Below, one piece after another: positions 14,301 through 58,504 of a stretch of 64,000 nt of DNA. Source of the stretch: Laetmonice hystrix (taxonomy: Eukaryota); assembly GCA_965235115.1 (NCBI GenBank), contig OZ249436.1, positions 4,714,001 through 4,778,000 on the forward strand, in the 5' to 3' direction. Each line of letters opens with the position of its first letter. The stretch's first letter is position 1. Under the pieces are notes generated by a model. That model worked only from the letters and a program-made list of their open reading frames with translations, ran no database searches and was not told the DNA's origin. Both the position numbers and the translations under genes were made by a program.

Positions 14301-17134
14301 ATGCCGCTGGAGTTGTACATTTGGCCGACGAGTCCACCGTGTAAGGCCACGCTAATGGTGTGTCTGGCGGCTGGAGTCGATGTCAAAGTCAAAATGGTGA
14401 ACTTGCCACAGGGCGAGCATCGACGGGAGACCTTCACTAAAGTAAGTCAGCCGTTAAAAGCCGACTTTCGGCGTGAGACCTCCACTAAAGTAAGTCAGCC
14501 GTTAAAGGCCGACTCTCGACTCGAGACCTCCACTAAAGTAAGTCAGCCGTTAAAGGCCGACTCTCGGCTCGAGACCTTCACTAAAGTAAGTCAGCCGTTA
14601 AAGGCCGACTCTCGGCTCGAGACCTTCACTAAAGTAAGTCAGCCGTTAAAGGCCGACTCTCGGCTCGAGACCTCCACTAAAGTAAGTCAGCCGTTAAAGG
14701 CCGACTCTCGGCTCGAGACCTTCACTAAAGTAAGTCAGCCGTTAAAGGCCGACTCTCGGCTCGAGACCTTCACTAAAGTAAGTCAGCCGTTAAAGGCCGA
14801 CTCTCGGCTCGAGACCTCCACTAAAGTAAGTCAGCCGTTAAAGGCCGACTCTCGGCTCGAGACCTTCACTAAAGTAAGTCAGCCGTTAAAGGCCGACTCT
14901 CGGCTCGAGACCTTCACTAAAGTAAGTCAGCCGTTAAAGGCCGACTCTCGGCTCGAGACCTTCACTAAAGTAAGTCAGCCGTTAAAAGCCGACTTTCGGC
15001 GTGAGACCTCCACTAAAGTAACAGGGCTGTCCAAAGTTGAGGCTGCTTGGTGCTCAACACGCGTAAATCCGCGCACCAGAATTACCAACCGAGTAACAGG
15101 GAAAAACAGTTTTCCAATAACCAGAAATACTTGGTCGCCCACGTGGGCAAGTAAGTGTCGCCCAACAGAACATTTGCTCACCTAACTACTTTTGCTTTTT
15201 TCAACAATCATTCTGGGCCCATTTTTTGTGTCAGCTGTTCTAAAAATTATTATTTTATAAACTGAGCTGCTTGACAAATGATCAGGATGTAAACAAAAAT
15301 AGGTACATCGCCCATGATAACTTAAACACCACGAAATTTGGTGGAAAGTAAAGATCCATGGCCCTGACCTTATCCCTAACCCCTAACCCCAGTCCCTACA
15401 CCTGCCAAAAACATATCCCTATCCTATCCATATCCCTATCCCTGACCTTAACCCTAACCCCTGCCCAAACATTTCGTGGTAAGTTATCATGGGGGAAGAC
15501 CCCAAAAATATGTGTACACAAGAACGGCTGTTAGGTTTAAGGAATAAGGGCGCATCTAAGACACCGAGAGACAGAGAGTAAGATACATAGGCCTATATTC
15601 ATTTTTAAGTTTTGTCGCTCACTTTTTTTCTTGTCGCATTTGTGTCACTGTTGTCGCTCCATGGCGCGACATAGCGACAAATGGACAGCCCTGAGTAAGT
15701 CAGCCGTTAAAGGCCGATTCTCGGCTGGAGACCTTCACTAAAGTAAGTCAGCCGTTAAAGGCCGACTTTGGGCGGGAGACCTTTACCAAAGTAAGTCAAC
15801 CGTTAAAGGCCGACTTTGGGCGGGAGACCTTTACTAAAGTAAGTCAGCCGTTAAAGGCCGACTCTCGGCGGGAGACCTCCACTAAAGTAAGTCAGCCGTT
15901 AAAGGCCGACCTTGGGCGGGAGACCTTCACTAAAGTAAGTCAGCAACTAAAGGCCGACTCTAAATTTAAGTCATTCCATGGACTAACTTCAGGGGACGTT
16001 CTTGGAAATGCCATTCGTACTCATCTATGCATAAACTCACTTCTGTACGCTATATCGTGGCAGTAATATAATTATATTTGCTCCGACTTTTCAGATGAAT
16101 AATTTCCAGTGTGTTCCAGTGCTTGACGACAATGGTGTTTTCATACACGAAAGGTGCAGCAGTGTAAATTGTTTTCACCAATACTGAAAGGCGAACTCTG
16201 CAGATTGCATTGCGTCTGTCAGATTGACAATGAAGCCAAACAAGTGTATGCATTGCACAGCGTAACAACTTTTCTTTTATGACAATTTTCGTCACCATCT
16301 AGTTTATGGAGCCAAGGATATTTTGCACGCTAATGTATGTACATGCATTATATGGTAGAATTTACATGAATTTTAGCGCCGTAATTAATTCTCTTTTTTC
16401 GAGCATTGTGTGGTTAAATCGTTAAATAACATGACGTTTACACAGTAATCGTTTCACTTTTACAAGCCGGTCGATCATGCGTTACGTGGTGGATAAATAC
16501 AGCCGGGTGGACAAGTTATATCCATCAGATCCTCACCAGAGGGCGCGCGTGAATGCCGTCTTAGATTACGACTGTGGCACTGTATCTCCCACGGTCCAAT
16601 CATACGTGGTCTGTAGCTTTAGGCACACCAGCTGGGTTTATAAGTAGATCTATACAAAATTAGTTTGCAAATATTACTTTTGTATTTTGGGCTTACGTGT
16701 ATTGTGACTAAATATCATTCAGTACAATTGATTTCTCGTCTTTCCTATGGATTGATTTTGAATTGTATTCATTTTGTTTCTGCGAAATATCCTGTGAAAC
16801 ATTTTGTCCTGACTGAGACTGACTGCCTTGCCCTCGCCAGTGCCCGCAGGTATTCCAACACCAAGAAGAGGACCCCGTGTGGAGAGGACGGTTGTTACGG
16901 GTACTCGGTCTCCTGGAGTCCTCGCCGTCCTACTGGCAGGAGGACTACCTTACTGGACCTTCAGTCACTATCGCTGATCTCTCCTTGACTGCCACTCTCT
17001 CCTTCCTCGAGGTGATCCACTTCGATATCTCTCGCTTCCCACAGCTACAAACCTGGCACGGACGAATACGCAATCTGCCCTACTACTCCAGAGTACACGA
17101 AACGTGCCAAGGTTTTATGGTGAACAAGTCTTAA
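14301..17134 (+). CDS. Cytosolic glutathione S-transferase, theta/delta-like (catalytic Ser), 211 aa; exons 14301-14441, 16095-16153, 16467-16608, 16841-17134
   Basis: Spliced translation MPLELYIWPTSPPCKA...NLPQGEHRRETFTK|MNNFQCVPVLDDNGVFIHES|RSIMRYVVDKY...LYPSDPHQRARVNAVLDYD...|...YLTGPSVTIADLSL...FPQLQTWHGRI. It has Ser11-PPC, the cis-Pro VP, ES and the TIAD N-cap. All introns are GT-AG and phase-consistent; AATAAA near 17555. Confidence 0.92.
15022..15693. mobile_element. Non-autonomous DNA transposon with 12-bp TIRs and 5-bp TSD (hAT5-like)
   Basis: TIR cagggctgtcca / tggacagccctg; TSD agtaa at 15017-15021 and 15694-15698. The satellite resumes in register after it. Confidence 0.85.
15302..15502. 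mobile_element. Nested ~200-bp MITE with 8-bp TSD and CCCTAA-like interior
   Basis: Imperfect TIRs ggtacatcgcccatgataact / agttatcatgggggaagaccc with subterminal accacgaaat/atttcgtggt; caaaaata on both flanks. Confidence 0.65.
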
Positions 17135-17649
17135 TTACGGACAAGTAATTAAGGAGCCAATTTAATAGTCTCCGCAAATAGGTGAATACTGTATCGTGAT
17201 AATAATCACCTGCGGTGAGATTAGATCTTGTGTGGCCATGAATCAGCGACAGTACCTTTTGGTGGGCTTCAGTAAATAGGCCTGCTGGCGATGATAATGC
17301 TCTAATCTAAAAAAAAGTTAGATACAATCACCTTATGAATCCATTTAGAACAGTTTTGCCATCAGAGTATGGGTCGCCACTGGCACAGCTTATCCTCAAC
17401 TTCATTAAGCTAACTCCATACTCATATACTGAGTAGGTCTCATCCTGTCACCGGCTCACCACTACTGACCCGCAAACGTGGAAAGGATGTACTTTTTCCA
17501 AGTTCGCGCCTTCTTTCGCTATCCTGGATTCTGGATGTCTGTGGTAAACACTGAATAAAAAAGGGCAGGTATAGAGCTGGTGGTAAACAGAATGGATGAC
17601 ACGGAGGATAGGATCACAGTAAACAAGTACCAGAAAGTATTATAAAACT

Positions 17650-25038: not shown

Positions 25039-26204
25039 GACCGCCACCCTCCGGCCCTTCCAGCACCCAGGAACCTTCACTTTATCGGCGTGTCCTGTGG
25101 GTTATAGAGCAGACCGCCACCCTCCGGCCCTTCCAGCACCCAGGAACCTTCAGTTTATCGGCGTATCCTGTGGGTTATAGAGCAGACCGCCACCCTCCGA
25201 CCCTTCCAGCACCCAGGAACCTTCACTTTATCGGCGTGTCCTGTGGGTTATAGAGCAGACTGGCACCCTGCGGCCCTTCCAGCACCCAGGAACCTTCAGT
25301 TTATCGGCGTGTCCTGTGGGTTATAGAGCAGACCGCCACCCTCCGGCCCTTCCAGCACCCAGGAACCTTCACTTTATCGGCGTGTCCTGTGGGTTTTAGA
25401 GCAGACCGCCACCCTCCGGCCCTTCCAGCACCCAGGAACCTTCAGTTTTTCGGCGTGTCCTGTGGGTTATAGAGCAGACCGCCACCCTGCGGCCCTTCCA
25501 GCACCCAGGAACCTTCACTTTATCGGCGTGTCCTGTGGGTTATAGAGCAGACCGCCACCCTCCGGCCCTTCCAGCACCCAGGAACCTTCAGTTTTTCGGC
25601 GTGTCCTGTGGGTTATAGAGCAGACCGCCACCCTCCGGCCCTTCCAGCACCCAGGAACCTTCACTTTATCGGCGTGTCCTGTGGGTTATAGAGCAGACCG
25701 CCACCCTGCGGCCCTTCCAGCACCCAGGAACCTTCACTTTATCGGCGTGTCCTGTGGGTTATAGAGCAGACTGCCACCCTCCGGCCCTTCCAGCACCCAG
25801 GAACCTTCAGTTTTTCGGCGTGTCCTGTGGGTTATAGAGCAGACCGCCACCCTCCGGCCCTTCCAGCACCCAGGAACCTTCACTTTATCGGCGTGTCCTG
25901 TGGGTTATAGAGCAGACCGCCACCCTCCGGCCCTTCCAGCACCCAGGAACCTTCACTTTATCGGCGTGTCCTGTGGGTTATAGAGCAGACTGCCACCCTC
26001 CGGCCCTTCCAGCACCCAGGAACCTTCACTTTATCGGCGTGTCCTGTGGGTTATAGAGCAGACCGCCACCCTGCGGCCCTTCCAGCACCCAGGAACCTTC
26101 ACTTTATCGGCGTGTCCTGTGGGTTATAGAGCAGACTGCCACCCTCCGGCCCTTCCAGCACCCAGGAACCTTCACTTTATCGGCGTGTCCTATGGGTTAT
26201 AGAG
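25039..26204. repeat. 73-bp minisatellite, 16 copies
   Basis: Unit gaccgccaccctccggcccttccagcacccaggaaccttcactttatcggcgtgtcctgtgggttatagagca; period 73 (25039 vs 25112). Confidence 0.95.
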
Positions 26205-26779
26205 CTGGTGCGATGGCAGTACATGTAAATGAATTCCTCCGTTAATCAAGGTTTCCGCAAACTGTGACCGCTCAAATTAAAAATGGCTAATCTTGATCTT
26301 AGACAAAAGCCGTAGTAAAATCTTTGCTTCCAATTCGAACTGAACCCAGGAATAATGTTTCCGATGCCTGTCGGGTTTTATTCCACTCCCTGAATTAACA
26401 AACGTTTTTGACAGCATCCACTGTACTAGGCGATACTCATGAAAGACACTAACCTACAAAGGCTACGATTTTCAAAATCACCCCCAAAGCCAAGCGAATT
26501 TTAGATCTATAACAAAAGAAAAATTAATGCCAGATGATCCAATCTTCTTTATTGTTTTACATCATTAGCATGTGAGGCAGAATGGGTATTTTAAGTAAAC
26601 ACTTGAAATTTTCGTTTATATTAAACAATAGCTGCGCAATGAGTTTCATTAGAAAGATGAGTTGTACCAAGAGGACAAGATTTTAACTGTGACAATAAGA
26701 TGTCCTCGGAGAACCCCCTCCCGTGACCTCCTGGACACAAACAGTGACCGACTCATGGTGACACAGATCTTTATCATTA

Positions 26780-28785: not shown

Positions 28786-30049
28786 AGTGTGGCTGTTCAC
28801 GATCGTAGGGCAGTGGTTCAATGGTCACTGGATTACTCCTCACGTCACCTCTCCAGGTCTGTGACAACAGCTTACAGCCACTGCTCCCAGATCCTACTGA
28901 AGTCTGAAGTCCTATCTGAAGTCAAAGGAAACCATGTATTACTTGTCTCTTGTTTTAAACTCTTCAACATATTGGTCCGGACGCCACCTTCTTACAATCC
29001 CCAAATAAGATCAAATAAATCAAATAGCGGAGGTTTGTAGAAAAAGACATTTCATAATTTATTTACTCAATTACTGCATGTTCATTCATTGACTGAGTCT
29101 AGACTCTACAGTACTCTGTGTCAGGCTCTGGCTCTGCCTCTGGTCAGCTATAATAATATACGGGGATCTCGCTGGCCGCTCACCACTTCGCCATCGGCGA
29201 ACAGAACTGCAATGTGGCTAATAAATTTAATTAATGGGTCGCCACTTTGGCAACTGCTTCCCGGCCCACCTATCCAGTGTCATTCATGGTGCCAGCCCAG
29301 CATTGTCGATCACTCGCTGCCGCTGAACCACTGATGTGACCTTTGACCCCACCAAGTTGCAGACCTGTGTCTCAAACTCATCATGTAATGCCACGTGCCT
29401 CCCTTATTGGAAGGTGTTGTGGCCTGTGAGTGGAGGTGGGTGGGAGAAACATTTGGTGTTGGGGGGGGGGGGGGGCAAACCTGTTGATGGAGCAGGTGTG
29501 AGCGGGATGAGAGGCTTCTGTTACCAGCCAGTTGTCAGTGCATCTGTGATCAGTAGTCCTGCGAAAGGATGCTGCTGTAGCCATCTCCCAAAAGGGGTTG
29601 TCTCAAAAATGTGTTTTTAAAATGTGTGACAAAATATTTAAAATGTGGGACCACTGTGACTGGGGGACCCTGTATTAAGTCATGAATAGGACTGGTTGTG
29701 CTGCACAATGAACATTCAACGTGGGGAAATAGACCTTTTTACCAAATGACTTTTGTGGCTAATGGATCATAAATGTGGCTCATCAAAACTCTGTTCAGTT
29801 AGCCACAGCCACAGGCACAGTGACAGTCACAGTCAGTGGCTAATGATTTTTGAAATCCTAGCCTAGCGAGATCCTTGATTAAAAACGATTATGAAACCCT
29901 CAACTCAAGCTCAAACGCTACTCCAACAAGCCAGAGTCTGATATCTGATAATGTACAACAAACTAGCAGAAACAGGGTCTAGGTTCCTGGACTAGCTCAA
30001 ACGCCAAAGGGAGGGCGGTAACTTAGTATATCATAATATAATCCACCTA

Positions 30050-30693: not shown

Positions 30694-33600
30694 ATGGCGT
30701 GGATGAGGGTTGGGGATCAAAGCCCGACTGAAGTTCATCCTGATTTACAAAGGGAACGCAAAACTGCCACGTTCTGTCCTGAGCTACTGACAAATCTACT
30801 GGATGGAGGGAAAGACCACACCGATCGTCGACGGCAAGTGGGTGCGTGTAGGCCTACACACTACTGGCCAGTTTTGGAGTGCAGCCCTTGGAACTGAGGC
30901 GTAATGTAGGACAAATATAATTCGGGCAGTTTTCTCAATCCATCTTCTTCGGGCAATGACCATTTATAGCGCCTGCCCTCAACGTTTTAGGTTCTCCATA
31001 ATCATACAAACAAAAATAAAACAATACCAACAAGAATTTTTTAAAATTATGAAGAATAATCATAAAAGATTTACAATGCTTTATTATGACAAACTGGCAG
31101 TTAAACTTAAAGTTACCTCATTGCCAACTGTAGGCCTATAATATATTAAATGAAAATAGCCTACCTCTAGAGTTCATTGAAATTACTAATTAATATAAAT
31201 GTGTGTTTATTTATCCACAGTTAGCACCCTTTTCCAGAACGCTGCCTTTGACCCCAAAGATTCCCATTTCCTGTCACGTTGGGACTCCTATGGCCGTGCG
31301 CTTCAAAAGGGTACGAAACTTCTGTCTGTAGGAATCCAACACGGCTGGAACAGGGACGATTTCAACCATGCTGTCAGGTAACAGGAAGGAAAAGTTTGAC
31401 AGTCACAGAGTGTCCGTGTATGACCGACCCATGACGTGCATTGGCTGTCAGAACCCATCATAACTATAGATTGAGATGGGGAGAAAAAAAAACCAGCCGA
31501 ACTGATTTTTTTATGAAAAAGCACATTTTGGTTACATCTACAGAGCGGTAACTATACACCATAAATTTAAAAGAGACAGATGTGCTAATTGTAGTAGGGT
31601 GGGGGCCGGCTCCCTAGAAAATTTCTTCAGACATATAGGCCCGAACTGGCTCAGAATGAGAGGAGGCTCCAGCATTCATGAGAGTGTTGGTCAACAAAGT
31701 GTTTGAATGGCCTTATATACTCCGTACAACATCAGGATAATATATTGGAAATTTCTTTATATTCCCTCACTGATTCCCAACAAGATCTTCTAAGATATTA
31801 GGAAGTAATCTCTAACTTTCACTGATAGGTTGTGTGCTTTTCCTCACGATGGAAATTTATTTGCAGTTTACTATTTTATTTCAGTGAGGGCGATTCATTA
31901 ATTAAAACATGTGTTGTTCCTTTAGCTAACCTTAACACCTAGAGTCATGGGATTCTCCTGATAGCAAAAGCTAATTCAATGCTCCTCACTGTAGATCCAT
32001 TCGGTTTGATGTCGGAATGGGCGTACATGTTATAATGTTTCTCCCTGCCATCGAACGTCTGGCAACGGACGAACAGAAGGCCGAGTGGCTCCCCCTAGCG
32101 ATGAGTCTGAAAATGATCGGTACCTACGCTCAAACTGAACTCGGACATGGTAAGTTACAGAGGTATAACTCCCTAGCCGGGTCATGGTAGTTTTGGGGAA
32201 TGTGACATTTTCAGTCCTAAATGGTTAAACGTATTGAACCGAGCATGGATGAGCCTGATGAGGTAGTCCTTTATATAATATGAAAAAGTAAACCTTAGGC
32301 CTAGCTGCAACAGATGAGTTGGGAGAAACAGCCGTGTTCAACTGAATATTAATAATGCCAGTTTATTTATGGTTTTCTTGTCTTTACTTAAATAGGGACT
32401 AACCTCCGGGAACTTCAAACCACGGCCGAGTACAACCCAACGACACAGGAGTTTGTGTTAAACACACCATTTCCAACAGGAATGAAATGGTGGCCAGGAG
32501 GGTGTGAGTTTAAGTTTGTAAGAGAAGAGAATATCAATACTTCAGGTGGCTAGAATTCAACAAGAATACTGTCCGCATATAGATCTATACATGCAGCACC
32601 TGAGAGAAAGGGAGAACAGTACTACATGTAGTTTTACGTATGCACAACCTTATATTTAATGTAGAATAATGTCATTTTTTTAAAATCATTATTAGCAAGG
32701 GTTATTAACTGTATTAAATGATTGGTGTAATTTCTTTATTGTTTTTAAAGTGGGGAAATCGTCAAACCATGTATTGTTACTGGCCCAGCTGATTGTGAAG
32801 GGGAAAAGATGTGGTATGCAGGCCTTCCTAGTCCCAATACGAAGTATGGAAACACACAAACCACTACCGGGTATGTAACTTCATACCCACTGAACCCAAA
32901 CAGGTATGTAACTTCATACACACTGAACCCAGACAGGTATGTAACTTCATACCCACTGAACCCAGACAGGTATGTAACTTCATACCCACTGAACCCAGAC
33001 AGGTATGTAACTTCATACCCACTGAACCCAGACAGGTATGTAACATCATACCCACTGAACCCAGACAGGTATGTAACATGACACCCACTGAACCCAGACA
33101 GGTATGTAACTTCATACCCACTGAACCCAGACAGGTATGTAACTTCATACCCACTGAACCCAGACAGGTATGTAACTTCATACCCACTGAACCCAGACAG
33201 GTATGTAACATCATACCCACTGAACCCAGACAGGTATGTAACATCATACCCACTGAACCCAGACAGGTATGTAACTTCATACCCACTGAACCCAGATCTT
33301 CATACCCACCCAACCCAGACAGGTATGTAACTTCATACCCACTGAACCCAGACAGGTATGTAACTTCATACCCACTGAACCCAGACAGGTATGTAACTTC
33401 ATACCCACTGAACCCAGACAGGTATGTAACTTCATACCCACTGAACCCAGACAGGTATGTAACTTCATACCCACTGAACCCAGACAGGTATGTAACTTCA
33501 TACTCACTGAACCCAGACAGGTATGTAACTTCATACCCACTGAACCAAGACAGGTATGTAACTTCATACCCACTGAACCCAGACAGGTATGTAACATCAC

Positions 33601-36600: not shown

Positions 36601-39600
36601 GGTATGTAACTTCATACCCACTGAACCCAGACAGGTATGTAACTTCATACCCACTGAACCCAAACAGGTATGTAACATCATACCCACTGAACCCAGACAG
36701 GTATGTAACTTCATACCCACTGAACCCAGACAGGTATGTAACTTCATACCCACTGAACCCAGACAGGTATGTAACATCATACCCACTTAACCTGGCAGGT
36801 ATGTAACTTCAAACGCACCCAGTAAACCTTCCGAATATGTTACATAATACCTCAGAAAAACAACAATGCCTTCATCACTGACACTTCCTTCGCCAATTGA
36901 TTCCTAATTTCACAGTTAGGTATATATTATGTGTGATGGTAATGTTAACTGTTACTTTTACTGTAACTGTTACTGTTAAAACTGAATGTTTCATGTCTAA
37001 AGGAGTTGAGGTTGGTGAGATCGGCCCGAGACTTGGCCTGAATACTGCTGACAATGGTTTCCTGATACTAAGAGACGTACACATTCCCAGAACAAACATG
37101 CTCATGAAATACAATCAGGTAGGTATGGATCGACCTGGTGTGCCTGGTGTGATCCCTCCACGACAAGGGCATTCCATAAACTGGGAGTTGACTGGTTTTA
37201 ATTTGTAAAAGAAATTTAACCGGTAAAATGTGCTGGTAGGAGCACATTATATGTAGGAGCTGGTATATAGAGTGTCAATGTTGTACATGAGACCTGTACA
37301 TATGATGTCTGTTAACCTATGTCTGTCTAAAGACCAGAGATTGAGTTTGAACAAGTAACATGTGTTGATCCCTCGTTTCGATCTATAGGTAACCGAGGAG
37401 GGGGAGTTTACGACTGGAAGCGAGGGTGGCCGCGCCACCTATAATACCATGGTGATGGTGAGGACTGCTATTGTTGACCACTGCTTCATGTTTGTGTCAC
37501 ACGCTACTACCATAGCAACACGCTACAGCGCCGTGTGGCGGCAGTCCGAACTAAAACCGGGGTCAGTCTCACAGCCTCACATTTATGGGCTGGAGAAAAT
37601 ACGTTACCATAGTGATAGAATGATTCCTTCAACTTGTTCACGTCCGTTTCATAATATCACTACAAGATTCTTTAGAAAAACTTAAGCAGTCCAATTGAAT
37701 GATAGTGTAGGCATATGTCAGAGGTATTTCTAAATTCTATTAAATGCTGCACTTATGTCAGCCTATGACATCTCGGCAGATATTCTATGATATGTCAATA
37801 TGTACGACATGCCACCATAGACCATGTTTCAACATCTGTTGCCATTTCTTCGATATTTCAGAGATGGGGAGGTCCAGGTGCTCGACTTCCAGACTCAACA
37901 GTACAAACTATTCCCAAACATAGCACTCGGGTACAGTTTTTATTACGCCCAGCGTGATATCGCGGCCACATACGAACGGATGTATAAAACTGAACTCAGT
38001 AAGGGCAACTTCACCAACGTACCTGAGGTAGGTCAGGAATTCCTGGGGGGAAGGGGGGAATTGGATGATTTGTCTGGTGGTCTGACCCAGAGATGATTTA
38101 TCTGGCGTCTGACCTCGAGTTGTAATAATTCTCCCTCCCCCACACACCCACAGATGCACAGTCAGAGTTGCTGTCTGAAGGCATACGCCACCGACCTGAC
38201 CACCGAGGCCGTGGACGTGTGTCGCAGAGCGTGTGGAGGACACGGATACCTGCTTTCCTCCGGGCTGGCTGACCTCCTCCAGGACTGCCTGGCTGGGGTC
38301 ACGTATGAGGGAGAGAATACAGTGCTCTACCTCCAGACCGCCAGGTATGGGGGCAAGGGTGGGGTAGGGGTGGGTACGGACAACTGGGGGTGGGGTATGG
38401 ACCAAGGGATGAGTGGAGGGGGTATTTATAGTTACCTCATCACGGTAATCCTGTCTTGTAAATTAGGACCCAACCTATTTTCTAAAGATGAAATGTCAAA
38501 TATGGAATACAATTCTTCGGGTGGGTCCATAATTAGGAATTGATTTTACCTCTATATGTATTGGAGAGATGAGCTGAGATAGTATAGGGGCAGGAGTGAG
38601 CTAATTGTCTGACCAACACATCACCACCATGCTGTCTCAGTTCTCACCGACCCTTCCTCCATACCAGATACCTGGTAAAGGCTTATACTAGTACTGGAGG
38701 AGAGCTGACTGGGACGAGTGCCTACCTAAGAGGACACCTCCAGGCTGCTCCAGTACATACAGCTACCGACTGTCGAAACTTCCACACCCTCACCACCGCA
38801 TTCAGGACACGGGCTCTGTAGTAGGTCCCGGCGATTTCAAATACATACCATAGGCGTCCTCGGGGGAGGAGGGGGGGACGTAATGAAGTTGAGTTGCAAG
38901 TCTTTCGTAATTCCTCTTCTGGTACCCGTAGCTCTGTGCTGACCACAGGTGCCTCCTGAAGTCGAATTCAACCCACCGTTTGGAAACCCTGGGGACACCT
39001 ATGTATACCTCAGCACTTCATGTTAGCTAGAGTTTCTTTGCCTTTGATGCAATAAATCTAACCTCACGAGTACTCAAGAAGGAAATGACCGTGACCGTGA
39101 CCGTTGATCCCCTCTATATTGAGATGTAAATAAAATCTCCTCCTCTATCGTCTAGCATGGTTCGTATTGCTGCAAACAACCTACAGAGGGCGCTAGCGTC
39201 TGGCAAGCCCCAACACGTGGCATGGAACGAGAACTCGGTCGACCTTGTCACAGCAGCTAAGGTATACTGTGCTAAGATTGTCATCCTTCAAGGTTACCCA
39301 GGTCATATCTGCTCGATACTTGGTAAAACTATTTAAACACACTCATTGAATATAGAGATATCTATACCCAGTGGCGGATCCAGAGGTCGGGGGTGTACGG
39401 TTGCAACCCCCTCCCCCCTAAAGTAATTTTTCTTTCTTTGCGCAAAACCTGAAAACTTTTTTGGGGAATAACTTTTTTTCGGTATTCCTTCCAGAGGGGC
39501 CTGCAGGAAACCGTGTTCGGGATTGGTGTGAATTAAAAGTAGAAACAGATGAAATGCTCCCATTTCTATAAAAAAAAAAAACTACTTCTAACTAGAAGGA

Positions 39601-41352
39601 GGTGGTTACTTCTATATTGCCCCGGTCCTTCTCAATCCTGCCCTACATGTTCAGGAGCCACGACCTTTGTGTTGCCAGGCCCACGTAGACAGTTACGTGG
39701 CAGTGACCTTCATGGAGAACGTCAAGCAGACGACAGTCTCTGACCCAGTCATCCGTGACGTCCTCCTCACCCTGGCCACGCTCCACGCCCTCCATAGGAT
39801 TGTGGTCGGCGCAGCCCAATTCCTCGAGGTAACCATGACGACAACCCTAATCCAGGAATTAGATACACTCGATATGAGATTTTTGTGGATCGGTAAGTTC
39901 TCGGGCTAAAGATAGTGGTCGTAGAACGCCTTCTCTTGGCAGTAGGCCCCCCTACACCTCGTGAGAAGGGTAACATACATGATTTCATGTTTATAGAGTG
40001 GCGCCATCTCACGGGAACAGTTGGAACTAGTACGTCGCCAGGAGGTGGCGCTGCTGCCAAAGATCAGGTGAGTCTGCATCATGTGGTCCTCACGTGCCAT
40101 TTGTTTGTCAATACATTTGTATTTATATGGAACTTTGTCCCAGTAAATGGCCTGATATCCAAGCTGGACTTGAAAAAGTAGGCGCTCGGTAAATATGATG
40201 CAATAACACCTATTCAGTTTTCTTCGAATTCCACTGAAACCATTGAACGCGTGGAAACTCCCAGCTGTCAAAATTTATCAGACCTACATCAATGTATCCA
40301 AGACTCACTAATAAGTCGAACATTAATTATTACAGGCATTACGATATTTTAATCCTAATTAAGAAATCTTTTCCATTATCTCTGTATATTAAGTTTATAC
40401 ATGTATTTCCCCCCCGTGAGGCCGAACGCCGTAGCTCTGGTAGATGCCTTTGATCTACATGATTTCTCGTTGAATTCGACTTTGGGGAGTTACGATGGCC
40501 AGTGCTACACTCGACTTTACGAACACGCTAAACGGAACCCACTCAACCAACAGCAGGTAACACTCAGCTTTCTGAATTGACCACGTTGGATTTGGATTTC
40601 TTTGGAGTCCCCCCCCCCCCTCCCACCCACCGGACCCCTTCAAAAATTCTGGATCCGCCCCTGGTAGCAGCCGCTTTTTATAGGGCGCCGTGCATAAATT
40701 ATGTAACGCGATTCTGACCAAAATCTGACCCCACCCCGCCCCACCCCACCCCCGTAATGCTTTCAATGGAGCTTTATAATAGACCCTAACAAGTACATAC
40801 ACCAGCACCCCACCCACACCCCCACCCCCACCCCCACCCACACCCCCACCCACACCCACACCCACACCCACACCCCCACCTCCACCCACACCCACACCCC
40901 ACCACCACCACCACCACCACCACCCCACCACCACCCCCACCCCCCACCCGCCACCGCCAGCGTTAAGGAGCGTTACGTCATTTATGGACGGCCCCTAAAG
41001 ACTCCACTAAGGAATGACATGGATAATAAAAAGTACAGTATGTCATTGTCAGGAACCAGTTCAGATAATATCTCCTGCCCATACTACCGACAGAGGGACT
41101 AAAATTGCCATGTTGATCCAAGATGCCATTTTCAAATGGCGGTGTTAAATTTTAGGGGATATTTATGGTAGGCCTAACCCCGAACCTTCTCAATCTGTGT
41201 TTTACTGGCAGGGAACAAACATCTACGTTTGACTACCCTTGGTAACTTGTCTAATAGATTATAAATCCATGTCTTTGTCATTTCAGGTCCATCCTGGCTA
41301 CTTCAAGTACATTAAACCAATACAGGAAGCCGCATTCTCAGCAAAACTCTGA
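30694..41352 (+). CDS. ACOX1: Peroxisomal acyl-CoA oxidase (ACOX1-like), 671 aa, 15 exons: 30694-30841, 31221-31377, 31995-32149, 32396-32503, 32751-32870, 37003-37118, 37389-37561, 37862-38027, 38154-38344, 38668-38820, 39156-39261, 39679-39828, 39997-40067, 40421-40556, 41287-41352
   Basis: Motifs [65 protein letters not shown] (catalytic Glu), [12 protein letters not shown] and C-terminal AKL (PTS1). Exons sum to 2016 nt with consistent phases and an ACCATGG start. Orthology to ACOX1 is not tested. Confidence 0.95.
32871..36810 (+). repeat. 33-bp minisatellite, ~119 copies, filling ACOX intron 5
   Basis: Unit GTATGTaacttcatacccactgaacccagaCAG; the first unit begins at the intron's first base (32871). 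Confidence 0.97.
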
Positions 41353-44873: not shown

Positions 44874-46409
44874 CTGAGCGGCCTTGCTTTCTGTCATGCA
44901 CAGGTCCCCATTTTTCGCTTGCCATGGTTTCTAACGTCAAATGACTGAAATTCACACTTAGTTGTCGAGTTATGACATGAGTGTTCCTGGTAAGTATTTT
45001 GGAGAAGGACGTCAGTGTAACACCAGCGCGCAGTGCATGGTGCGCGTGTTTTCCATGCCTGTTTTAGAATTATTGAACCGTGAGGCATGTCTTGAAGTCC
45101 CACTTGTTTGCTCGGGTTTTTCGTTTGTTTTTTCAAAATAAACTGTGAAGTTTGCTTATAGGCTAATGACTACTTTGACATCCATGTATCCATGTTTAGG
45201 GGAAACCCATGCAGCAGTAATGATACTGATTACAGATAACGTATAGATCCCAGATTAATCAGTAAATAATGCATGATATTATAGAAAGGGAAGAGTTATA
45301 AACTGTATAAATTTAAGTTGGGAAAATCGGCAATGATCGAGCCGGTGGGCCGGTGGGCCGGTGGGCCGGTGGGCCGGTGGGCCCGGTGGGACGGTGGGCC
45401 GGTGGGCCGGTGGGCCGGTGGGCCGGTGGGTCGGTGGGCCGGTGGGACGGTGGGCCGGGTGGGTCGGTGGGTCGGTGGGCCGGTGGGCCGGTGGGCCGGT
45501 GGGACGGTGGGACGGTGGGCCGGTGGGACGGTGGGCCGGTGGGCCGGTGGGCCGGTGGGCCGGTGGGCCGGTGGGCCGGTGGGACGGTGACGAAGAATTC
45601 CTCTGGATCGTGTCACTTTAGGGTTCGGTGCTAAATGGCGAGCATTGAATTGTTATTGTTTGTGCCTGATACAAACGACATATAATATTGCGTTGCTTTA
45701 AGTCAGGAGACCCGCTTACGGCAGCCCTGAGACGATAGCGTACTTTGAGGGTTTACTAGATCTATAGACGTACTTTGATGGTTTACTAGATCTATAGACA
45801 TACACTTTGAGGGTTTACTAGATCTATAGACGAACTTTGAGGGTTTACTAGATCTATAGACGAACTTTGACGGTTTACTAGATCTATAGACGTACTTTGA
45901 CGGTTTACTAGATCTATAGACGAACTTTGACGGTTTACTAGATCTATAGACGTACTTTGAGGGTTTACTAGATCTATAGACGTACTTTGAGGGTTTACTA
46001 GATCTATAGACGTACTTTGAGGGTTTACTAGATCTATATAGACGTATACACTTTGAGGGTTTACTAGATCTATAGACGAACTTTGAGGGTTTACTAGATC
46101 TATAGACGTACTTTGACGGTTTACTAGATCTATAGACGTACTTTGACGGTTTACTAGATCTATAGACGTACTTTGAGGGTTTACTAGATCTATAAACGTA
46201 CTTTGAGGGTTTACTAGATCTACAGACGTACTTTGATGGTTTACTAGATCTATAGACGTATACACTTTGAGGGTTTAGTAGATCTATAGACGTACTTTGA
46301 CGGTTTACTAGATCTATAGACGTATACACTTTGAGGGTTTACTAGATCTACAGACGTACTTTGACGGTTTACTAGATCTTCAGACGTACTTTGACGGTTT
46401 ACTGGCCAT
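44874..46409 (-). CDS. Putative small gene, first coding exons 46409-46390 and 44944-44874 (MASKPSNHLTLETMASEKWGPVHDRKQGRS...), possibly continuing at ~43181
   Basis: Kozak accATGg at 46409, donor AA|GTACGT, then a phase-matched stop-free exon bounded by gaatttcag| and CAG|GTCAGT. A perfect NRF1 palindrome lies upstream. No homology recognised. Confidence 0.35.
45341..45587. repeat. 9-bp GC-rich repeat (ccggtgggc)n
   Basis: Direct inspection. Confidence 0.95.
45740..46403. repeat. 30-bp minisatellite, ~22 copies
   Basis: Unit gtactttgagggtttactagatctatagac. Confidence 0.95.
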
Positions 46410-47948: not shown

Positions 47949-50900
47949 AGTGAGAGCGTCAGATAGATAGAGGCACCATTTGGTTTCTGTTTGAGTGAGA
48001 GCGTCAGATAGATAGAGGCACCATTTGGTTTCTGTTTGAGTGAGAGCGTCAGATAGATAGAGGCACCATTTGGTGTATGTTTTAGTGAGAGCGTCAGATA
48101 GATAGAGGCACCATTTGGTTTCTGTTTTAGTGAGAGCGTTAGATAGATAGAGGCACCATTTGGTTTCTGTTTTAGTGAGAGCCTCAGATAGATAGAGGCA
48201 CCATTTGGTTTCTGTTTTAGTGAGAGCGTCACATAGATAGAGGCACCATTTGGTTTCTGTTTTAGTGAGAGCGTCAGATAGATAGAGGCACCATTTGGTT
48301 TCTGTTTTAGTGAGAGCGTCAGATAGATAGAGGCACCATTTGGTTTCTGTTTGAGTGAGAGCGTCACATAGATAGAGGCACCATTTGGTTTCTGTTTTAG
48401 TGAGAGCGTCACATAGATAGAGGCACCATTTGGTTTCTGTTTTAGTGAGAGCGTCAGATAGATAGAGGCACCATTTGGTTTCTGTTTTAGTGAGAGCGTC
48501 AGATAGATAGAGGCACCATTTGGTTTCTGTTTTAGTGAGAGCGTCAGATAGATAGAGGCACCATTTGGTTTCTGTTTTAGTGAGAGCGTCAGATAGATAG
48601 AGGCACCATTTAGTTTCTGTTTTAGTGAGAGCGTCAGATAGATAGAGGCACCATTTGGTTTCTGTTTTAGTGAGAGCGTCAGATAGATAGAGGCACCATT
48701 TGGTTTCTGTTTGAGTGAGAGCGTCAGGCACCATTTGGTTTCTGTTTTAGTGAGAGCGTCAGATAGATAGAGGCACCATTTGGTTTCTGTTTTAGTGAGA
48801 GCGTCAGATAGATAGAGGCACCGTTTGGTTTCTGTTTTAGTGAGAGTGTCAGATAGATAGAGGCACCATTTGGTTTCTGTTTTAGTGAGAGCGTCAGATA
48901 GATAGAGGCACCATTTGGTTTCTGTTTTAGTGAGAGCGTCAGATAGATAGAGGCACCATTTGGTTTCTGTTTTAGTGAGAGCGTCAGATAGATAGAGGCA
49001 CCATTTGGTGTATGTTTTAGTGAGAGCGTCAGATAGATAGAGGCACCATTTGGTTTCTGTTTTAGTGAGAGCGTCAGATAGATAGAGGCACCATTTGGTT
49101 TCTGTTTTAGTGAGAGCGTCAGATAGATAGAGGCACCATTTGGTTTCTGTTTTAGTGAGAGACTAAGATAGATAGAGGCACCATTTAGTTTCTGTTTTAG
49201 TGAGAGCGTCACATAGATAGAGGCACCATTTGGTTTCTGTTTTAGTGAGAGCGTCACATAGATAGAGGCACCATTTGGTTTCTGCTTTAGTGAGAGCGTC
49301 AGATAGATAGAGGCACCATTTGGTTTCTGTTTTAGTGAGAGCGTCAGATAGATAGAGGCACCATTTGGTTTCTGTTTTAGTGAGAGACTAAGATAGATAG
49401 AGGCACCATTTAGTTTCTGTTTTAGTGAGAGCGTCACATAGATAGAGGCACCATTTGGTTTCTGTTTTAAGATAGATAGAGGCACCATTTGGTGTATGTT
49501 TTAGTGAGAGCGTCAGATAGATAGAGGCACCATTTGGTTTCTGTTTTAGTGAGAGCGTCAGATAGATAGAGGCACCATTTGGTTTCTGTTTTAGTGAGAG
49601 CGTCAGATAGATAGATAGAGGCACCATTTGGTTTCTGTTTTAGTGAGAGCGTCAGATAGATAGATAGAGGCACCATTTGGTTTCTGTTTTAGTGAGAGCG
49701 TCAGATAGATAGATAGAGGCACCATTTGGTTTCTGTTTTAGTGAGAGACTAAGATAGATAGAGGCACCATTTAGTTTCTGTTTTAGTGAGAGCGTCACAT
49801 AGATAGAGGCACCATTTGGTTTCTGTTTTAGTGAGAGCGTCAGATAGATAGAGGCACCATTTGGTTTCTGTTTTAGTGAGAGCGTCAGATAGATAGAGGC
49901 ACCATTTGGTTTCTGTTTTAGTGAGAGCGTCAGATAGATAGAGGCACCATTTGGTTTCTGTTTTAGTGAGAGCGTCAGATAGATAGATAGAGGCACCATT
50001 TGGTTTCTGTTTTAGTGAGAGACTAAGATAGATAGAGGCACCATTTAGTTTCTGTTTTAGTGAGAGCGTCACATAGATAGAGGCACCATTTGGTTTCTGT
50101 TTTAGTGAGAGCGTCAGATAGATAGAGGCACCATTTGGTTTCTGTTTTAGTGAGAGCGTCAGATAGATAGAGGCACCATTTGGTTTCTGTTTTAGTGAGA
50201 GCGTCAGATAGATAGAGGCACCATTTGGTTTCTGTTTTAGTGAGAGCGTCAGATAGATAGAGGCACCATTTGGTTTCTGTTTTAGTGAGAGCGTCAGATA
50301 GATAGAGGCACCATTTGGTTTCTGTTTTAGTGAGAGCGTCAGATAGATAGAGGCACCATTTGGTTTCTGTTTTAGTGAGAGCGTCAGATAGATAACGTTA
50401 GAGGCACCATTTGGTTTCTGTTTGAGTGAGAGCGTCAGATAGATAGAGGCACCATTTGGTTTCTGTTTGAGTGATAGCGTCAGATAGATAGAGGCACCAT
50501 TTGGTTTCTGTTTGAGTGAGAGCGTCAGATAGATAGAGGCACCATTTGGTTTCTGTTTGAGTGAGAGCGTCAGATAGATAGAGGCACCATTTGGTTTCTG
50601 TTTTAGTGAGAGCGTCAGATAGATAGAGGCACCATTTGGTTTCTGTTTTAGTGAGAGACTAAGATAGATAGAGGCACCATTTGGTTTCTGTTTGAGTGAG
50701 AGCGTCAGATAGATAGAGGCACCATTTGGTTTCTGTTTTAGTGAGAGCGTCAGATAGATAGAGGCACCATTTGGTGTATGTTTTAGTGAGAGCGTCAGAT
50801 AGATAGAGGCGCCATTTGGTTTCTGTTTTAGTGAGAGCGTCAGATAGATAGAGGCACCATTTGGTGTATGTTTTAGTGAGAGCGTCACATAGATAGAGGC

Positions 50901-51942
50901 ACCATTTGGTTTCTGTTTTAGTGAGAGCGTCAGATAGATAGAGGCACCATTTGGTGTATGTTTTAGTGAGAGCGTCAGATAGATAGAGGCACCATTTGGT
51001 TTCTGTTTTAGTGAGAGCGTCAGATAGATAGAGGCACCATTTGGTTTCTGTTTTAGTGAGAGCGTCAGATAGATAGAGGCACCATTTGGTTTCTGTTTTA
51101 GTGAGAGCGTCAGATAGATAGAGGCACCATTTGGTGTATGTTTTAGTGAGAGCGTCAGATAGATAGAGGCGCCATTTGGTTTCTGTTTTAGTGAGAGCGT
51201 CACATAGATAGAGGCACCATTTGGTTTCTGTTTTAGTGAGAGCGTCAGATAGATAGAGGCACCATTTGGTTTCTGTTTTAGTGAGAGCGTCAGATAGATA
51301 GAGGCACCATTTGGTTTCTGTTTGAGTGAGAGCGTCAGATAGATAGAGGCACCATTTGGTTTCTGTTTTAGTGAGAGCGTCAGATAGATAGAGGCACCAT
51401 TTGGTTTCTGTTTTAGTGAGAGCGTCACATAGATAGAGGCACCATTTGGTTTCTGTTTTAGTGAGAGCGTCACATAGATAGAGGCACCATTTGGTTTCTG
51501 TTTTAGTGAGAGCGTCAGATAGATAGAGGCACCATTTGGTTTCTGTTTTAGTGAGAGCGTCAGATAGATAGAGGCACCATTCGGTTTCTGTTTTAGTGAG
51601 AGCGTCAGATAGATAGAGGCACCATTTGGTTTCTGTTTTAGTGAGAGTGTCAGATAGATAGAGGCACCATTTGGTTTCTGTTTTAGTGAGAGCGTCAGAT
51701 AGATAGAGGCACCATTTGGTTTCTGTTTTAGTGAGAGCGTCAGATAGATAGAGGCACCATTTGGTTTCTGTTTTAGTGAGAGCGTCAGATAGATAGAGGC
51801 ACCATTTGGTTTCTGTTTTAGTGAGAGCGTCAGATAGATAGAGGCACCATTTGGTTTCTGTTTTAGTGAGAGCGTCAGGCACCATTTGGTTTCTGTTTTA
51901 GTGAGAGCGTAAGATAGAGAGGCACCATTCGGTTTCTGTTTC
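47949..51942. repeat. 45-bp minisatellite, ~89 copies
   Basis: Unit agtgagagcgtcagatagatagaggcaccatttggtttctgtttt. Confidence 0.97.
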
Positions 51943-52925
51943 TGTTGCCTTCTAGTAAATTTGCGAAAGTTCGTGACCTTGTCATGCGCAGAGTGAGTCA
52001 GATCTAAATGAGGTTTATCACATTGCCATTACATGGCGGCGCTCCTTCTCGTAGCATGAGCACCACTTCTGTGAGCCCCCACACCCCACACCCCCACTCC
52101 AACCACACCCCCACTCCCACCACACCCCCACCCCCACCACACCCCCACTCCCACCACACCCCCACCCCCACCACACACCCCACCATGCATGAAACGCCCG
52201 CGGGACTCAAATCGGATCACTTGTGTCTCCTTTCATTTCAAACGCCGCAGATACCTTTTCAGTTGTATCAGCCTTTTAACTGCCGCTGAGTTTTGAGTTT
52301 TTTTGCCGGTTTCTGCGTGAGCCGACAGATAGGCTTCGTTAAAATCAAATCCCAAATGCTAACAAACATGTCGCCCATGTGCCAGTAGAAATCACAAATT
52401 TTAATATGACGAGTCTTTGTTTGGTGCTCTTTTATTTCAATTGGACGACAATTCACAAGTAGTCTCTACACCACACACAAACAAATTATTAATGAGCATG
52501 CCACTTATCATTTCATGCCAAATTACAAGGGACATAGCGATCAACGATCATGGTACATCGACTTTCTCACTGGTGTCAAAGTAATTTCGATCGTTCAGGA
52601 GACATTTCCAACTAACAATGTGATTTTCAAAACTGTCACAATACCGCATGAGTCAAGAAGGCATTGTCAAGAAGGCGCGTATTTGTCTGAATCCTCACAA
52701 TTGACAACCCTTGTCTGCTCCAGGAAGGAGACAAAGCCAGACCCGACAGAGAGAATTTAAAACAGAGGGGCACGGAGGGGGGGGCGCCCCTGGAAGTTTT
52801 TCGATTGATTACATTTCACCGATCTGAAAGGCGATGCACATTGTAATGTAAGGTATAGTGTAAGGGGAGGACATTCAAGTGACCTGGGAGGGAGAAACAA
52901 TACCGTGAGTATCATCCCAGAATAA

Positions 52926-54815
52926 TCAATAGAAACATGTCTCCCTGACCACCCAGCTTCTGTTACAGCTTTGTCGAGATTGATGGGTTGCTATCTCATC
53001 AATAGAAACACGTCCCCTGACCACCCAGCTTCTGTTCTAACTTTGTCGAGATTGATGGGTTGCTATCTCATCAATAGAAACATGTCCCCCTGACCACCCA
53101 GCTTCTGTTCTAGCTTTGTCGAGATTGATGGGTTGCTATCTCATCAATAGAAACATGTCCCCCTGACCACCCAGCCTCTGTTACAGCTTTGTTGAGATTG
53201 ATGGGTTGCTATCTCATCAATAGAAACATGTCCCCCTGACCACCCAGCTTCTGTTCTAACTTTGTCGAGATTGATGGGTTGCTATCTCATCAATAGAAAC
53301 ATGTCCCCCTGACCACCCAGCTTCTGTTACAGCTTTGTCGAGATTGATGGGTTGCTATCTCATCAATAGAAACATGTCCCCCTGACCACCCAGCTTCTGT
53401 TCTAACTTTGTCGAGATTGATGGGTTGCTATCTCATCAATAGAAACATGTCCCCCTGACCACCCAGCTTCTGTTACAGCTTTGTCGAGATTGATGGGTTG
53501 CTATCTCATCAATAGAAACATGTCCCCCTGACCACCCAGCCTCTGTTACAGCTTTGTCGAGATTGATGGGTTGCTATCTCATCAATAGAAACATGTCCCC
53601 CTGACCACCCAGCTTCTGTTACAGCTTTGTCGAGATTGATGGGTTGCTATCTCATCAATAGAAACATGTCCCCCTGACCATCCAGCCTCTGTTACAGCTT
53701 TGTCGAGATTGATGGGTTGCTATCTCATCAATAGAGACATGTCCCCCTGACCACCCAGCTTCTGTTCTAACTTTGTCGAGATTGATGGGTTGCTATCTCA
53801 TCAATCGAAACATGTCCCCCTGACCATCCAGCTTCTGTTCTAACTTTGTCGAGATTGATGGGTTGCTATCTCATCAATAGAAACATGTCCCCCTGACCAC
53901 CCAGCTTCTGTTACAGCTTTGTCGAGATTGATGGGTTGCTATCTCATCAATAGAAACATGTCCCCCTGACCATCCAGCCTCTGTTACAGCTTTGTCGAGA
54001 TTGATGGGTTGCTATCTCATCAATAGAGACATGTCCCCCTGACCACCCAGCTTCTGTTCTAACTTTGTCGAGATTGATGGATTGCTATCTCATCAATAGA
54101 AACATGTCCCCCTGACCACCCAGCTTCTGTTACAGCTTTGTCGAGATTGATGGGTTGCTATCTCATCAATAGACCCATGTCCCCCTGACCACCCAGCTTC
54201 TGTTCTAACTTTGTCGAGATTGATGGGTTGCTATCTCATCAATAGAAACATGTCCCCCTGACCACCCAGCCTCTGTTACAGCTTTGTCGAGATTGATGGG
54301 TTGCTATCTCATCAATAGAAACATGTCCCCCTGACCACCCAGCTTCTGTTCTAACTTTGTCGAGATTGATGGGTTGCTATCTCATCAATAGAAACATGTC
54401 CCCCTGACCACCCAGCTTCTGTTCTAACTTTGTCGAGATTGATGGGTTGCTATCTCATCAATAGAAACATGTCCCCCTGACCACCCAGCTTCTGTTCTAA
54501 CTTTGTCGAGATTGATGGGTTGCTATCTCATCAATAGAAACATGTCCCCCTGACCACCCAGCTTCTGTTCTAACTTTGTCGAGATTGATGGGTTGCTATC
54601 TCATCAATAGAAACATGTCCCCCTGACCACCCAGCTTCTGTTCTAACTTTGTCGAGATTGATGGGTTGCTATCTCATCAATAGAAACATGTCCCCCTGAC
54701 CACCCAGCTTCTGTTCTAACCTTGTCGAGATTGATGGGTTGCTATCTCATCAATAGAAACATGTCCCCCTGACCACCCAGCCTCTGTTCTAACCTTGTCG
54801 AGATTGATGGATTGC
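52926..54815. repeat. 73-bp minisatellite, ~26 copies
   Basis: Unit tcaatagaaacatgtccccctgaccacccagcttctgttacagctttgtcgagattgatgggttgctatctca; period 73 (53071 vs 53144). Confidence 0.96.
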
Positions 54816-56477
54816 ATTCTCATTGTCTCCCTCATCATCACAAAATATAAAACTAATTTAAAACTTAAAAACGTTTGACATATACTCTCAAATGGTTGTA
54901 TAGATCGTTTCCCCGTTGAAACTCACTTGAGAACCCCATGTATGCCTGTTGTACGACGACACAGAAATATGGCATTTTGGACAATAATTACAAAGCCAGA
55001 ACAACATTCCCTTGTTGGACATTAACACTTTCATGACGGATTGTGAGAGAAATCATGATAATGTGAGATCATGGTTGACATATACTTCCCATTAAACACG
55101 GTCTTCTGGTTCAAACGGTTGTCGAGCGGTATTTCAGAACGGGAAAACCTAGCATAGCCGGATCAAGGATTTTGAAAGAAATGGATGACGGGGAAAGTCA
55201 GCAAAGAATGGATTCCCCCTCAGAAGGGATTTATGGTAGATTATCTAACAATAGTGAGGATTATGTTACTGGTAGGCGGGCCTATACTGTTCAGTGAACG
55301 TGCTTCCGAAGTCCATGTCAGCACAGTGCTATTTATATGATAAATTACATGAATGCAAACATCCGTGTGTGTGGGGGATCTTGTCCCAGTCATGCAGGAT
55401 CTGTCTATCTGTCCTAATGACCCAGTGTGTGTGTATGTGTATAACCTCGATCTGTAGGACTAGTTAGACCTACATGTATAGATCCGATAGGGTATAATAT
55501 GCAGGGCTACCGGTTTATGCTCATAAGTGTCATGCAAAAAAATGCCGGGTTTCCCCCCATAATTGTATAACTAGACTGACTAAGCGTCGGTCTACTTCCT
55601 ACACATTAAAACCAAAAAGAAACGTTTAATGATTTATAATAAAGACGTAATCCAACTGGGGCCAGTTGCATGACTGTCCGTTCGTTAATTTCCCCATGTA
55701 TTTTCAATGAGAATTTTAACGAACGGACAGTCATGCAACTGACCCCTGACGAGACTTTTTGCACTAGGGTTTTACATTTGAGCAACACCAGCAATGGTGA
55801 TGTAACATAGGTAAGTAAGGAAATCTAACCCTTGAAAGTCAACGACCATGTCAGCAAATATCTGACAATGAATTTTTCCAATGCCTGTGGCGCCCCCTGG
55901 AACGGAAGTAGTGGAAGCGTACCGGAAGTTGACGATGCGTCCGCCGGTGATGAAGGACCTCCCCCCCCCCCCTTCGCTCTTACCATGTACGGTGTGTATT
56001 AATAAATCTATGGCCTGATGACTTCTTTGAGCTTGGACCACTTGAAGTCATCCTTTGACCACAAGTATTGGCCGAGTCCCCGCGACGTACCAACACAGTA
56101 TTATACGTGGTCCAGCGATAGCTATTATCTAATTCCTCCGGAAACGACATAGATCTATATTCACACAAGAGGTTCCACGATTATGGTTACGTTTGGGGAA
56201 ACACTTAAGTCATCTACCAACTACATACACTAGGCCCAGTTACAGAAACACCTAAGTCATCTACCAACTACATATACACTAGGCCCAGTTACCGATACAT
56301 CCACGGTTACAGTGCCTGCAGAAGTGACGACACAATTTTATGTTTTTCACCGAAATAATCTTTGGAACCACACAGGAGAATGTAAAATAAAACTCCTTTT
56401 GAAATTCATAGATTTATACTATAATGCGTCGGCCTATATACAAACTCAGAGAGAGTTCCGGCAAAATGTCCCCTTGG

Positions 56478-56854: not shown

Positions 56855-57687
56855 CCTCTTGGAAGTAAACGTTTCATCGCTCACATAGGTCTGTATTATA
56901 GGCCTATGCCTAATACGCTACTATTCAGCATTCAAATATGGTATGCGATTTATAATGTTTCTGTAGGCCTATCACCCTAGGCCAAGTCCACCTCTCACTA
57001 TGGCCAAAATATAGCAAATTATAACAAAATGTATACATAGTATATAACCATCCTGAACGCAATGAGACCATATGAACCCCCCACCCCACCCCCACCCCAC
57101 CCCACCCGTTCATAACCTCGAGGGTAAAAGCCTCCCCTTGTAACCGGCGGCCGCCCCTGGGGACCAGTACCCGGATTCATTTTCTCTATTAGCATATAGC
57201 GGGCGGAACCCCCAACCCAACCCTGCTGGGCTTTGATCATACCGGCGTCTCTGCTCTCAACCACAGGTATCTGATCACGGATCGCTCCTACCTGTGAAAG
57301 ATTATAGGCACCTTGGTCCCCATGGCAGCCCTACTTTGTGTTCATTTACCTGACATAATACTTATAGAGACCATCAAAGACGATCATACAATGTTATGTT
57401 TTCAGGCGTTTTTTCTCCTCTGACGATGGCAGAACAAAGGTGATGTTCTTACAAGATGCCGGTCTTACATCAAAGGAAATCGTTGAGATTAGCATGTTTT
57501 AGCCCAATACAAAGAATGGAGACGTCAGTTTTGTGTTATGCTTGCTACCTCGCAGCTCTCGTATATGGATTTATTTGGAGAGTTGGGGTTTTTTTTGCCG
57601 ATACGCCATTCTGGCTTTTACCTGGATGTTTCTTTCAAGGAGATGATTCTTACTTTCTAACTTGAGGTGAAGAATACTGACGCTTGA

Positions 57688-58504
57688 AAACCAATCGGTG
57701 AGCAGTATACCCCATATACAGTATACTCAATGTTGGATCTATAAACCGATCTGTGAGCAGTATACCCCATATACAGTATACTCAATGTTGGATCTATACA
57801 CCGACCGGTGAGCAGTATACCCCATATACAGTATACTCAATGTTGGATCTATAAACCCATCGGTGAGCAGTATACCCCATATACAGTATACTCAATGTTG
57901 GATCTATAAACCGATCTGTGAGCAGTATACCCCATATACAGTATACTCAATGTCGGATCTATAAACCGACCGGAGCAGTATACCCCATATACAGTATACT
58001 CAATGTTGGATCTATAAACCGATCTGTGAGCAGTATACCCCATATACAGTATACTCAATGTCGGATCTATAAACCGACCGGAGCAGTATACCCCATATAC
58101 AGTATACTCAATGTTGGATCTATAAACCGACCGGAGCAGTATACCCCATATACAGTATACTCAATGTTGGATCTATACACCGACCGGTAAGCAGTATACC
58201 CCATATACAGTATACTCAATGTTGGATCTATACACCGACCGGTGAGCAGTATACCCCATATACAGTATACTCAATGTCGGATCTATAAACCGACCGGAGC
58301 AGTATACCCCATATACAGTATACTCAATGTTGGATCTATAAACCGATCTGTGAGCAGTATACCCCATATACAGTATACTCAATGTTGGATCTATAAACCC
58401 ATCGGTGAGCAGTATACCCCATATACAGTATACTCAATGTCGGATCTATAAACCGATCTGTGAGCAGTATACCCCATATACAGTATACTCAATGTTGGAT
58501 CTAT
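57688..58504. repeat. 53-55-bp minisatellite, ~15 copies
   Basis: Unit gtgagcagtataccccatatacagtatactcaatgttggatctataaaccgatct. Confidence 0.95.

Follow-up and report, generated by a model that had tools for sequence, protein, structure and literature searches.

Tandem repeats that lie across an exon-intron boundary have been described as mirages, with regular splicing and an origin called unclear (PMC3087553). The amphioxus cases are Adh3, the globins BflGb6 and BflGb9, troponin C and PGBD5, the last two from PMC3902484 (PMC3087553, PMC3902484). In intron 7 of human F7, which carries a 37-bp variable number tandem repeat, only the most upstream of the identical donors is used (PMC1557585), and four further human genes, 6-16, CBS, lamin B2 and PDGF, are listed in the same account (PMC1557585). 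Choice of the first donor by 5′-3′ scanning is known to have been demonstrated for human F7 only, and normal splicing with such anatomy is reported in all three accounts (PMC1557585, PMC3087553, PMC3902484). Two arrays of this kind were found in a 64,000-nt stretch (the window; C1:4,714,001-4,778,000) of a 627-Mb animal genome assembly of 35 contigs, one in intron 1 of a glutathione S-transferase (GST) gene and one in intron 5 of a peroxisomal acyl-CoA oxidase (ACOX) gene. The arrays are probably minisatellites of the mirage type that arose by local duplication, are tolerated through an exon-proximal splice site and are by-products with no regulatory role. Coordinates are given in Table 1.

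The GST gene has four exons (14301-14441, 16095-16153, 16467-16608 and 16841-17134) and an intact frame of 213 amino acids (aa). Exon 1 matches GST_N under the cut-off (E=0.0016) and exon 4 matches GST_C over it, and the Pfam search gave no match of their own for exons 2 and 3. Solved delta-class GSTs align with residues 1-49 and do not align with the repeat that follows, the homology ending at residue 47-49, which is the start of the repeat. The 48-bp array begins 15 bp inside exon 1, and its unit consists of the exon-1 tail, the donor AAA|GTAAGT and the head of the intron, with 15-18 of the last 18 bases of exon 1 matched by the units. The intron carries this donor 17 times, as one real site and 16 identical decoys that continue the frame of exon 1 without a stop (16 aa per unit). 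That the array copies the donor, as an initial annotation of the window had proposed, is thus confirmed. The unit is private, all 17 of its 17 genome matches falling within the two GST blocks. Units 1 and 12 depart from the type seen in the interior, and the final unit has diverged. With the array collapsed to one unit, intron 1 is about 160 bp long.

The two GST blocks are one array of approximately 18 units cut by a 672-bp insert, which sits exactly inside a decoy donor. The insert consists of an outer dispersed element and a nested second dispersed element of approximately 200 bp, and has at least 60 genome matches, mostly 90-99% identical among the matches listed. It is best described as a young nested pair of putative transposon-like elements. 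A phage search with the insert gave no match. The frame of the GST gene is unbroken despite the dispersed element inside the array.

All 15 ACOX exons are matched by the full-length homolog P0004 in 14 high-scoring segment pairs, and homologs in insects, spiders and vertebrates share 51-65% identity; the best match overall has 75%. The 33-bp array, in which 110 of 118 units are exactly 33 bp, begins at the donor of exon 5 (32751-32870) and stops short of exon 6 (37003-37118). The claim that arrays begin or end exactly at exon boundaries is correct for ACOX only; in GST the onset lies within the exon. The array is at the donor as annotated, but CAG|GTATGT is not the real site: the true donor is CGG|GTATGT (8.0 bits), and CAG|GTATGT (10.1 bits) is the sequence of 116 of the 117 decoys, all 116 scoring above the real donor. 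Read-through would give GGT ATG TAA, with a stop two codons past the donor. In 7q84, residues 188-226 correspond to exon 5 and exon 6 picks up at 228-229, so the first donor is the one consistent with the protein. Hardly any exon sequence is contained in the unit (approximately 1 exon base), and 12 of 33 positions are identical in register. Descent of the unit from the exon-5 tail was not established, local similarity giving P=0.04 and 0.12. All 100 listed of 113 genome matches to the unit are at the ACOX locus. The array is made of a few dominant variants with diverged end units, and intron 5 is about 270 bp when the array is collapsed.

Three sequencing runs from one sample cover the introns within 29500-32905 with zero spliced joints and behave as DNA, and their contigs over this region extend only to the start of the ACOX array. 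These contigs carry a second allele across 30297-31689 that differs over 1.4 kb by about 16 substitutions and by several indels. A further array (90-bp unit, 7.8 copies, 41424-42126) begins 72 bp past the ACOX stop codon.

The intact frames and the homology across the junction are indirectly consistent with regular splicing, in which the outermost splice site would be used. The spliceosome would indeed face many near-identical decoys, as the initial annotation pointed out, 16 in GST and 117 in ACOX; this problem has already been studied in human F7.

The window alone says little about frequency. A uniformly placed seed would span a splice site with a probability of 0.18-0.25 over 17 introns, and since the collapsed introns are also short, the two cases are weak evidence by themselves. 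Array edges were counted in a 244-kb sample independent of the window, of which 199 kb surround top-scoring matches and 45 kb were picked as clusters of close exons, the latter part favouring short introns. Exons were placed by searching for four families (myosin, kinesin, SNF transporter and aldehyde dehydrogenase) without regard to repeats, and 156 of 299 family matches were entered (71/86, 41/85, 28/112 and 16/16, respectively), all inside the sample; 135 kinase matches were left out. Splice sites are predictions made near the ends of the family matches with a weight matrix, and those of one gene are non-independent in the counts. Each array with a period of 12-250 and 2.5 or more copies was reduced to a single unit, and the edge facing the exon was binned by distance. 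This gave 278 predicted splice sites and 49 array edges.

Seven of the 278 sites (2.5%; 2 donors and 5 acceptors in 7 genes) are spanned by arrays with unrelated units. The deep-intron rate predicts 1.87 (P=0.003), and the expectation taken locus by locus is 2.69 (P=0.016). A further 9 arrays begin 0-50 bp from the junction on the intron side without reaching it, where 2.36 are expected (P=0.0008), and the two classes together make 16 against 6.0 (P=0.0001, locus-conditional). The edge rate is 0.64 per kb for spanning arrays, 0.65 at 0-50 bp, 0.15 at 50-150 bp, 0.12 at 150-400 bp and 0.20 beyond 400 bp, which suggests that arrays are about three to four times as dense near exon edges as deeper in introns. 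The excess is found at other cut-offs (9 against 2.5-3.4 for at least 1.9 copies; 7 against 1.2-2.1 for at least 4 copies), and is kept at 1.9, 2.5 and 4 copies and for strong sites only (P 0.0003-0.016). Without the two arrays that have less than 6 bp of exon, 5 spanning arrays remain against 1.59 (P=0.023). The 199-kb unclustered part has 5 against 1.4 (P=0.014) or, locus-conditionally, 2.18 (P=0.064, borderline). One myosin array (C12:10990429) was dropped as a spanning case, its donor having been mis-called, which reduced the spanning count from 8 to 7. In each of 9 sample cases examined, it is the outermost copy that lies next to the family-matched exon.

The effect is one of closeness to exons and not of copying of the splice signal, which is not singled out because the arrays lying 0-50 bp from the junction are equally enriched. 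Among 29 deep-intron arrays, 4 carry strong donors (1.9 expected) and 5 carry acceptors (2.9 expected), and the exon content of spanning units is scattered from 0 to 75 bp. For the proposal that tandem duplications are seeded at splice junctions, for which the initial annotation had suggested a count of array ends, the enrichment itself is supported and about three- to fourfold, but it is not confined to the splice signal, and the sample counts give no support to the signal as the seed. In one SNF transporter gene (C18:26.75 Mb), arrays lie across or beside three or four junctions. Array-rich sample loci often seem nearer to contig ends, an uncounted impression.

Tandem Repeats Finder returned 48 rows for the window, including about 20 minisatellite arrays, and four further places had been put forward as weaker junction cases. 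When random windows of 30-73 bp are made tandem, 35-67% of them contain a splice-like site of at least 6 bits on either strand, and cases with a motif only are therefore at chance level. This applies to the 30-bp array at 46.4 kb (minus strand), where the annotated donor AAA|GTACGT (6.5 bits, 46389) lies 47 bp behind a rival, GAC|GTAAGT (7.1 bits, 46436), and could not be confirmed. Neither the 48-52 kb array, proposed to carry an acceptor, nor the 25-26 kb array on the minus strand has a homology-supported exon; the motifs of both are at chance level, and the last 45-bp unit of the former ends about 15 bp short of a different acceptor-like site. At 57.7 kb, the plus-strand exon before the proposed donor CG|GTGAGC has stops in all three frames. 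The 55-bp array there reads better as an acceptor array of the minus strand: its copies close with weak acceptor-like TAG sites (1.3-4.8 bits), and the candidate exon that follows is in phase with candidate exons at 57291-57243 and 52883-52820 (minus). The plus-strand GTGAG is CTCAC on the minus strand, which we take to be a branch-point-like motif. Neither strand reading is backed by homology. A candidate multi-exon gene on the minus strand (62600-52030) has introns that hold 23-, 55- and 73-bp arrays; a search with its exon at 60 kb found no homolog among 48 candidates, which is weak evidence. The 73-bp array in this region, which was not among the places put forward, comes to an end some 41 bp short of a strong candidate acceptor (11.1 bits).

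Table 1. Genes, arrays and insert in the window, with positions counted from its first nucleotide.
Feature	Position	Strand	Basis
Glutathione S-transferase gene (delta/epsilon/theta-like)	14301..17134	+	Frame, Pfam profiles, structure alignment
48-bp array, proximal block, 12.4 copies	14427..15021	+	Tandem Repeats Finder, unit alignment
672-bp insert	15022..15693		12-bp terminal inverted repeats, 5-bp target duplication
48-bp array, distal block, 5.6 copies, end 133 bp before exon 2	15694..15961	+	Tandem Repeats Finder, unit alignment
73-bp array (16 copies) with minus-strand acceptor-like motif	25039..26205		Tandem Repeats Finder, motif
Peroxisomal acyl-CoA oxidase gene, 15 exons	30694..41352	+	Homology, intact 671-aa frame
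33-bp array, 118 units, onset at exon-5 donor	32870..36818	+	Tandem Repeats Finder, unit alignment
30-bp array, 21.8 copies, donor-like AAA|GTACGT	45735..46403	-	Tandem Repeats Finder, motif score
45-bp array (89 copies) with plus-strand acceptor-like motif	47949..51941		Tandem Repeats Finder, motif
73-bp array, 26 copies	52925..54823	-	Tandem Repeats Finder; adjacent to, not spanning, acceptor
Candidate 61-nt open exon right after 55-bp array	57682-57622	-	Inferred from sequence
55-bp array, 15 copies, abuts candidate acceptor at 57683	57688..58504	-	Inferred from sequence

Elsewhere in the window, a local segmental duplication (about 240-3822 and 4000-9598) has two copies, each closing with the same 52-bp array (10.6 and 29.8 copies). 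A degenerate array of three 462-bp units occupies 18071-19471. A candidate exon on the minus strand (24125-22821) predicts a basic, coiled-looking peptide and runs into an array of nine 123-bp units; Pfam matches on the frame of this repeat had no passing stretches and are repeat artefacts. Also on the minus strand, a gene at 28785-27991 and 27379-26780 has an orphan N-terminal domain with no real Pfam match and 9 homologs at 55-70% identity.

The features of the GST and ACOX arrays suggest the following course. A stretch of 30-130 bp at an exon edge was duplicated in tandem on the spot, a local origin shown by the GST and ACOX units being private to their own loci and by the exon tail carried in the GST units. 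The pair would then have expanded and been homogenised by unequal exchange or slippage, as the variant blocks and diverged end units may reflect. The gene would survive if the exon-proximal copy (first donor or last acceptor) stays intact and in use, which the homology is consistent with, the outermost site being chosen perhaps by scanning or by exon definition. The greater density of arrays within about 50 bp of exon edges, observed in the 244-kb sample, is most likely due to the proximity of constrained sequence and not to the splice motif, as an array adjacent to an exon would be deletable from one side only; young insertions may also have diluted deep intron DNA and lowered the array density there. 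Several points weigh against this explanation. In 4 of 11 spanning arrays, including GST, decoy use would insert a peptide that keeps the frame and has no stop, and human 6-16 and CBS do make use of proximal pseudo-sites (PMC1557585); some leak into decoys is possible for both reasons. The sample is small (49 edges), relies on predicted splice sites and was chosen in part as clustered exons. A raised rate of array birth at exon edges also predicts the same counts as retention.

This last possibility is ranked as the main rival to retention beside constrained sequence, although it is unlikely. DNA breaks or template switches would be concentrated where exon meets intron, with splicing-coupled polymerase pausing, R-loops or nucleosome edges as possible causes, and the arrays would still be neutral. 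The three- to fourfold excess to either side of the junction and the flat rate beyond 50 bp (0.12-0.20 per kb) fit such a process, as do the two donor arrays whose start falls on donor position 0 to -1 (ACOX, and myosin on C18), but the equal excess of non-spanning neighbours and the range of offsets from 0 to 75 bp argue against a fixed breakpoint. If a DNA lesion coupled to splicing or transcription made the exon edges of this genome hot spots for the birth of tandem duplications, which is conceivable though doubtful, about 6% of splice sites would have an array across them or within 50 bp, and the resulting thousands of naturally occurring decoy series, with as many as about 120 sites each, would allow genome-wide tests of splice-site choice and of intron gain by duplication. 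Much less probable is that arrays are born uniformly and come to lie near exons only by inflating short introns. The short collapsed introns, the window probability given above and the borderline value of the 199-kb part favour this, yet in collapsed coordinates the counts are still 7 against 1.9-2.7 and 16 against 6.0, and the excess survives the copy cut-offs, the restriction to strong sites and the exclusion of arrays with little exon.

Tuning of splicing by the arrays, which the initial annotation had also offered, or an extended form of it in which in-frame isoforms arise (GST gaining 16 aa with each additional unit), finds no support here and is the least credible explanation, being very improbable. 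It can draw on the GST decoys, which repeat the real donor without change and keep an open frame, on the similar state of the 4 arrays mentioned above, and on human tandem repeats that can alter splicing (PMC10078293). However, in the set of 11 spanning arrays, which combines the sample arrays with the two window arrays and includes two 2-copy cases, decoy use would lead to a frameshift or stop in 7, and the period is divisible by 3 in 6 (P=0.12). The ACOX decoys run into a stop at once, an insertion in GST would lie within the N-terminal domain at profile position 47 of 76, and the units are private to single loci. Mirage-type minisatellites without a regulatory role thus remain the preferred explanation. 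ACOX intron 5, with 116 decoys that outscore the real donor, is a good natural test of first-donor scanning outside mammals, and GST intron 1 is another, in which in-frame decoys could not be hidden by decay. Junction arrays of this type also mislead gene predictors.

The arrays share with the amphioxus mirages the tandem copies of a boundary, at donors and acceptors alike, the unrelated units in unrelated genes and the diverged end units. The GST unit spans the boundary and the ACOX unit is a borderline case, with onset at the donor and approximately one exon base, while a copied GT/AG signal is present in all 16 GST and 117 ACOX decoys. Local origin with a different unit at each junction is also common to both, the sample adding 7 more unrelated units, and inner units evolve in concert to the exclusion of the ends in GST and ACOX, as judged by unit comparison rather than from a tree. 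The globin and PGBD5 mirages have 2-7 copies, whereas arrays here reach 118, and regular splicing was established in amphioxus by reverse transcription PCR, whereas GST and ACOX are known from genomic sequence. The likeness to human F7 is that the first monomer spans the donor and identical pseudo-donors follow; only or mainly the most upstream site is used in the human genes, and the homology here fits the first donor. F7 has 5-9 copies against 18 in GST and 118 in ACOX, and differs in that ACOX decoys outscore the real donor and that acceptor arrays occur here too. Human internal tandem repeats (PMC2812944) are likewise minisatellites of about 30 bp at exon-intron boundaries, but are described as changing exons or creating introns, whereas no structural change is seen in GST or ACOX. 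Earthworm intron arrays are described, in the part of the account available, without junction anchoring (PMC12783039). A search of the open-access literature turned up no genome-scale rate of junction arrays against a null, and the present sample measures such a rate, unlike the amphioxus accounts in the portions cited. The GST and ACOX arrays are of the known mirage and F7 intron 7 type, and the measured excess near exons is the sole addition to it.

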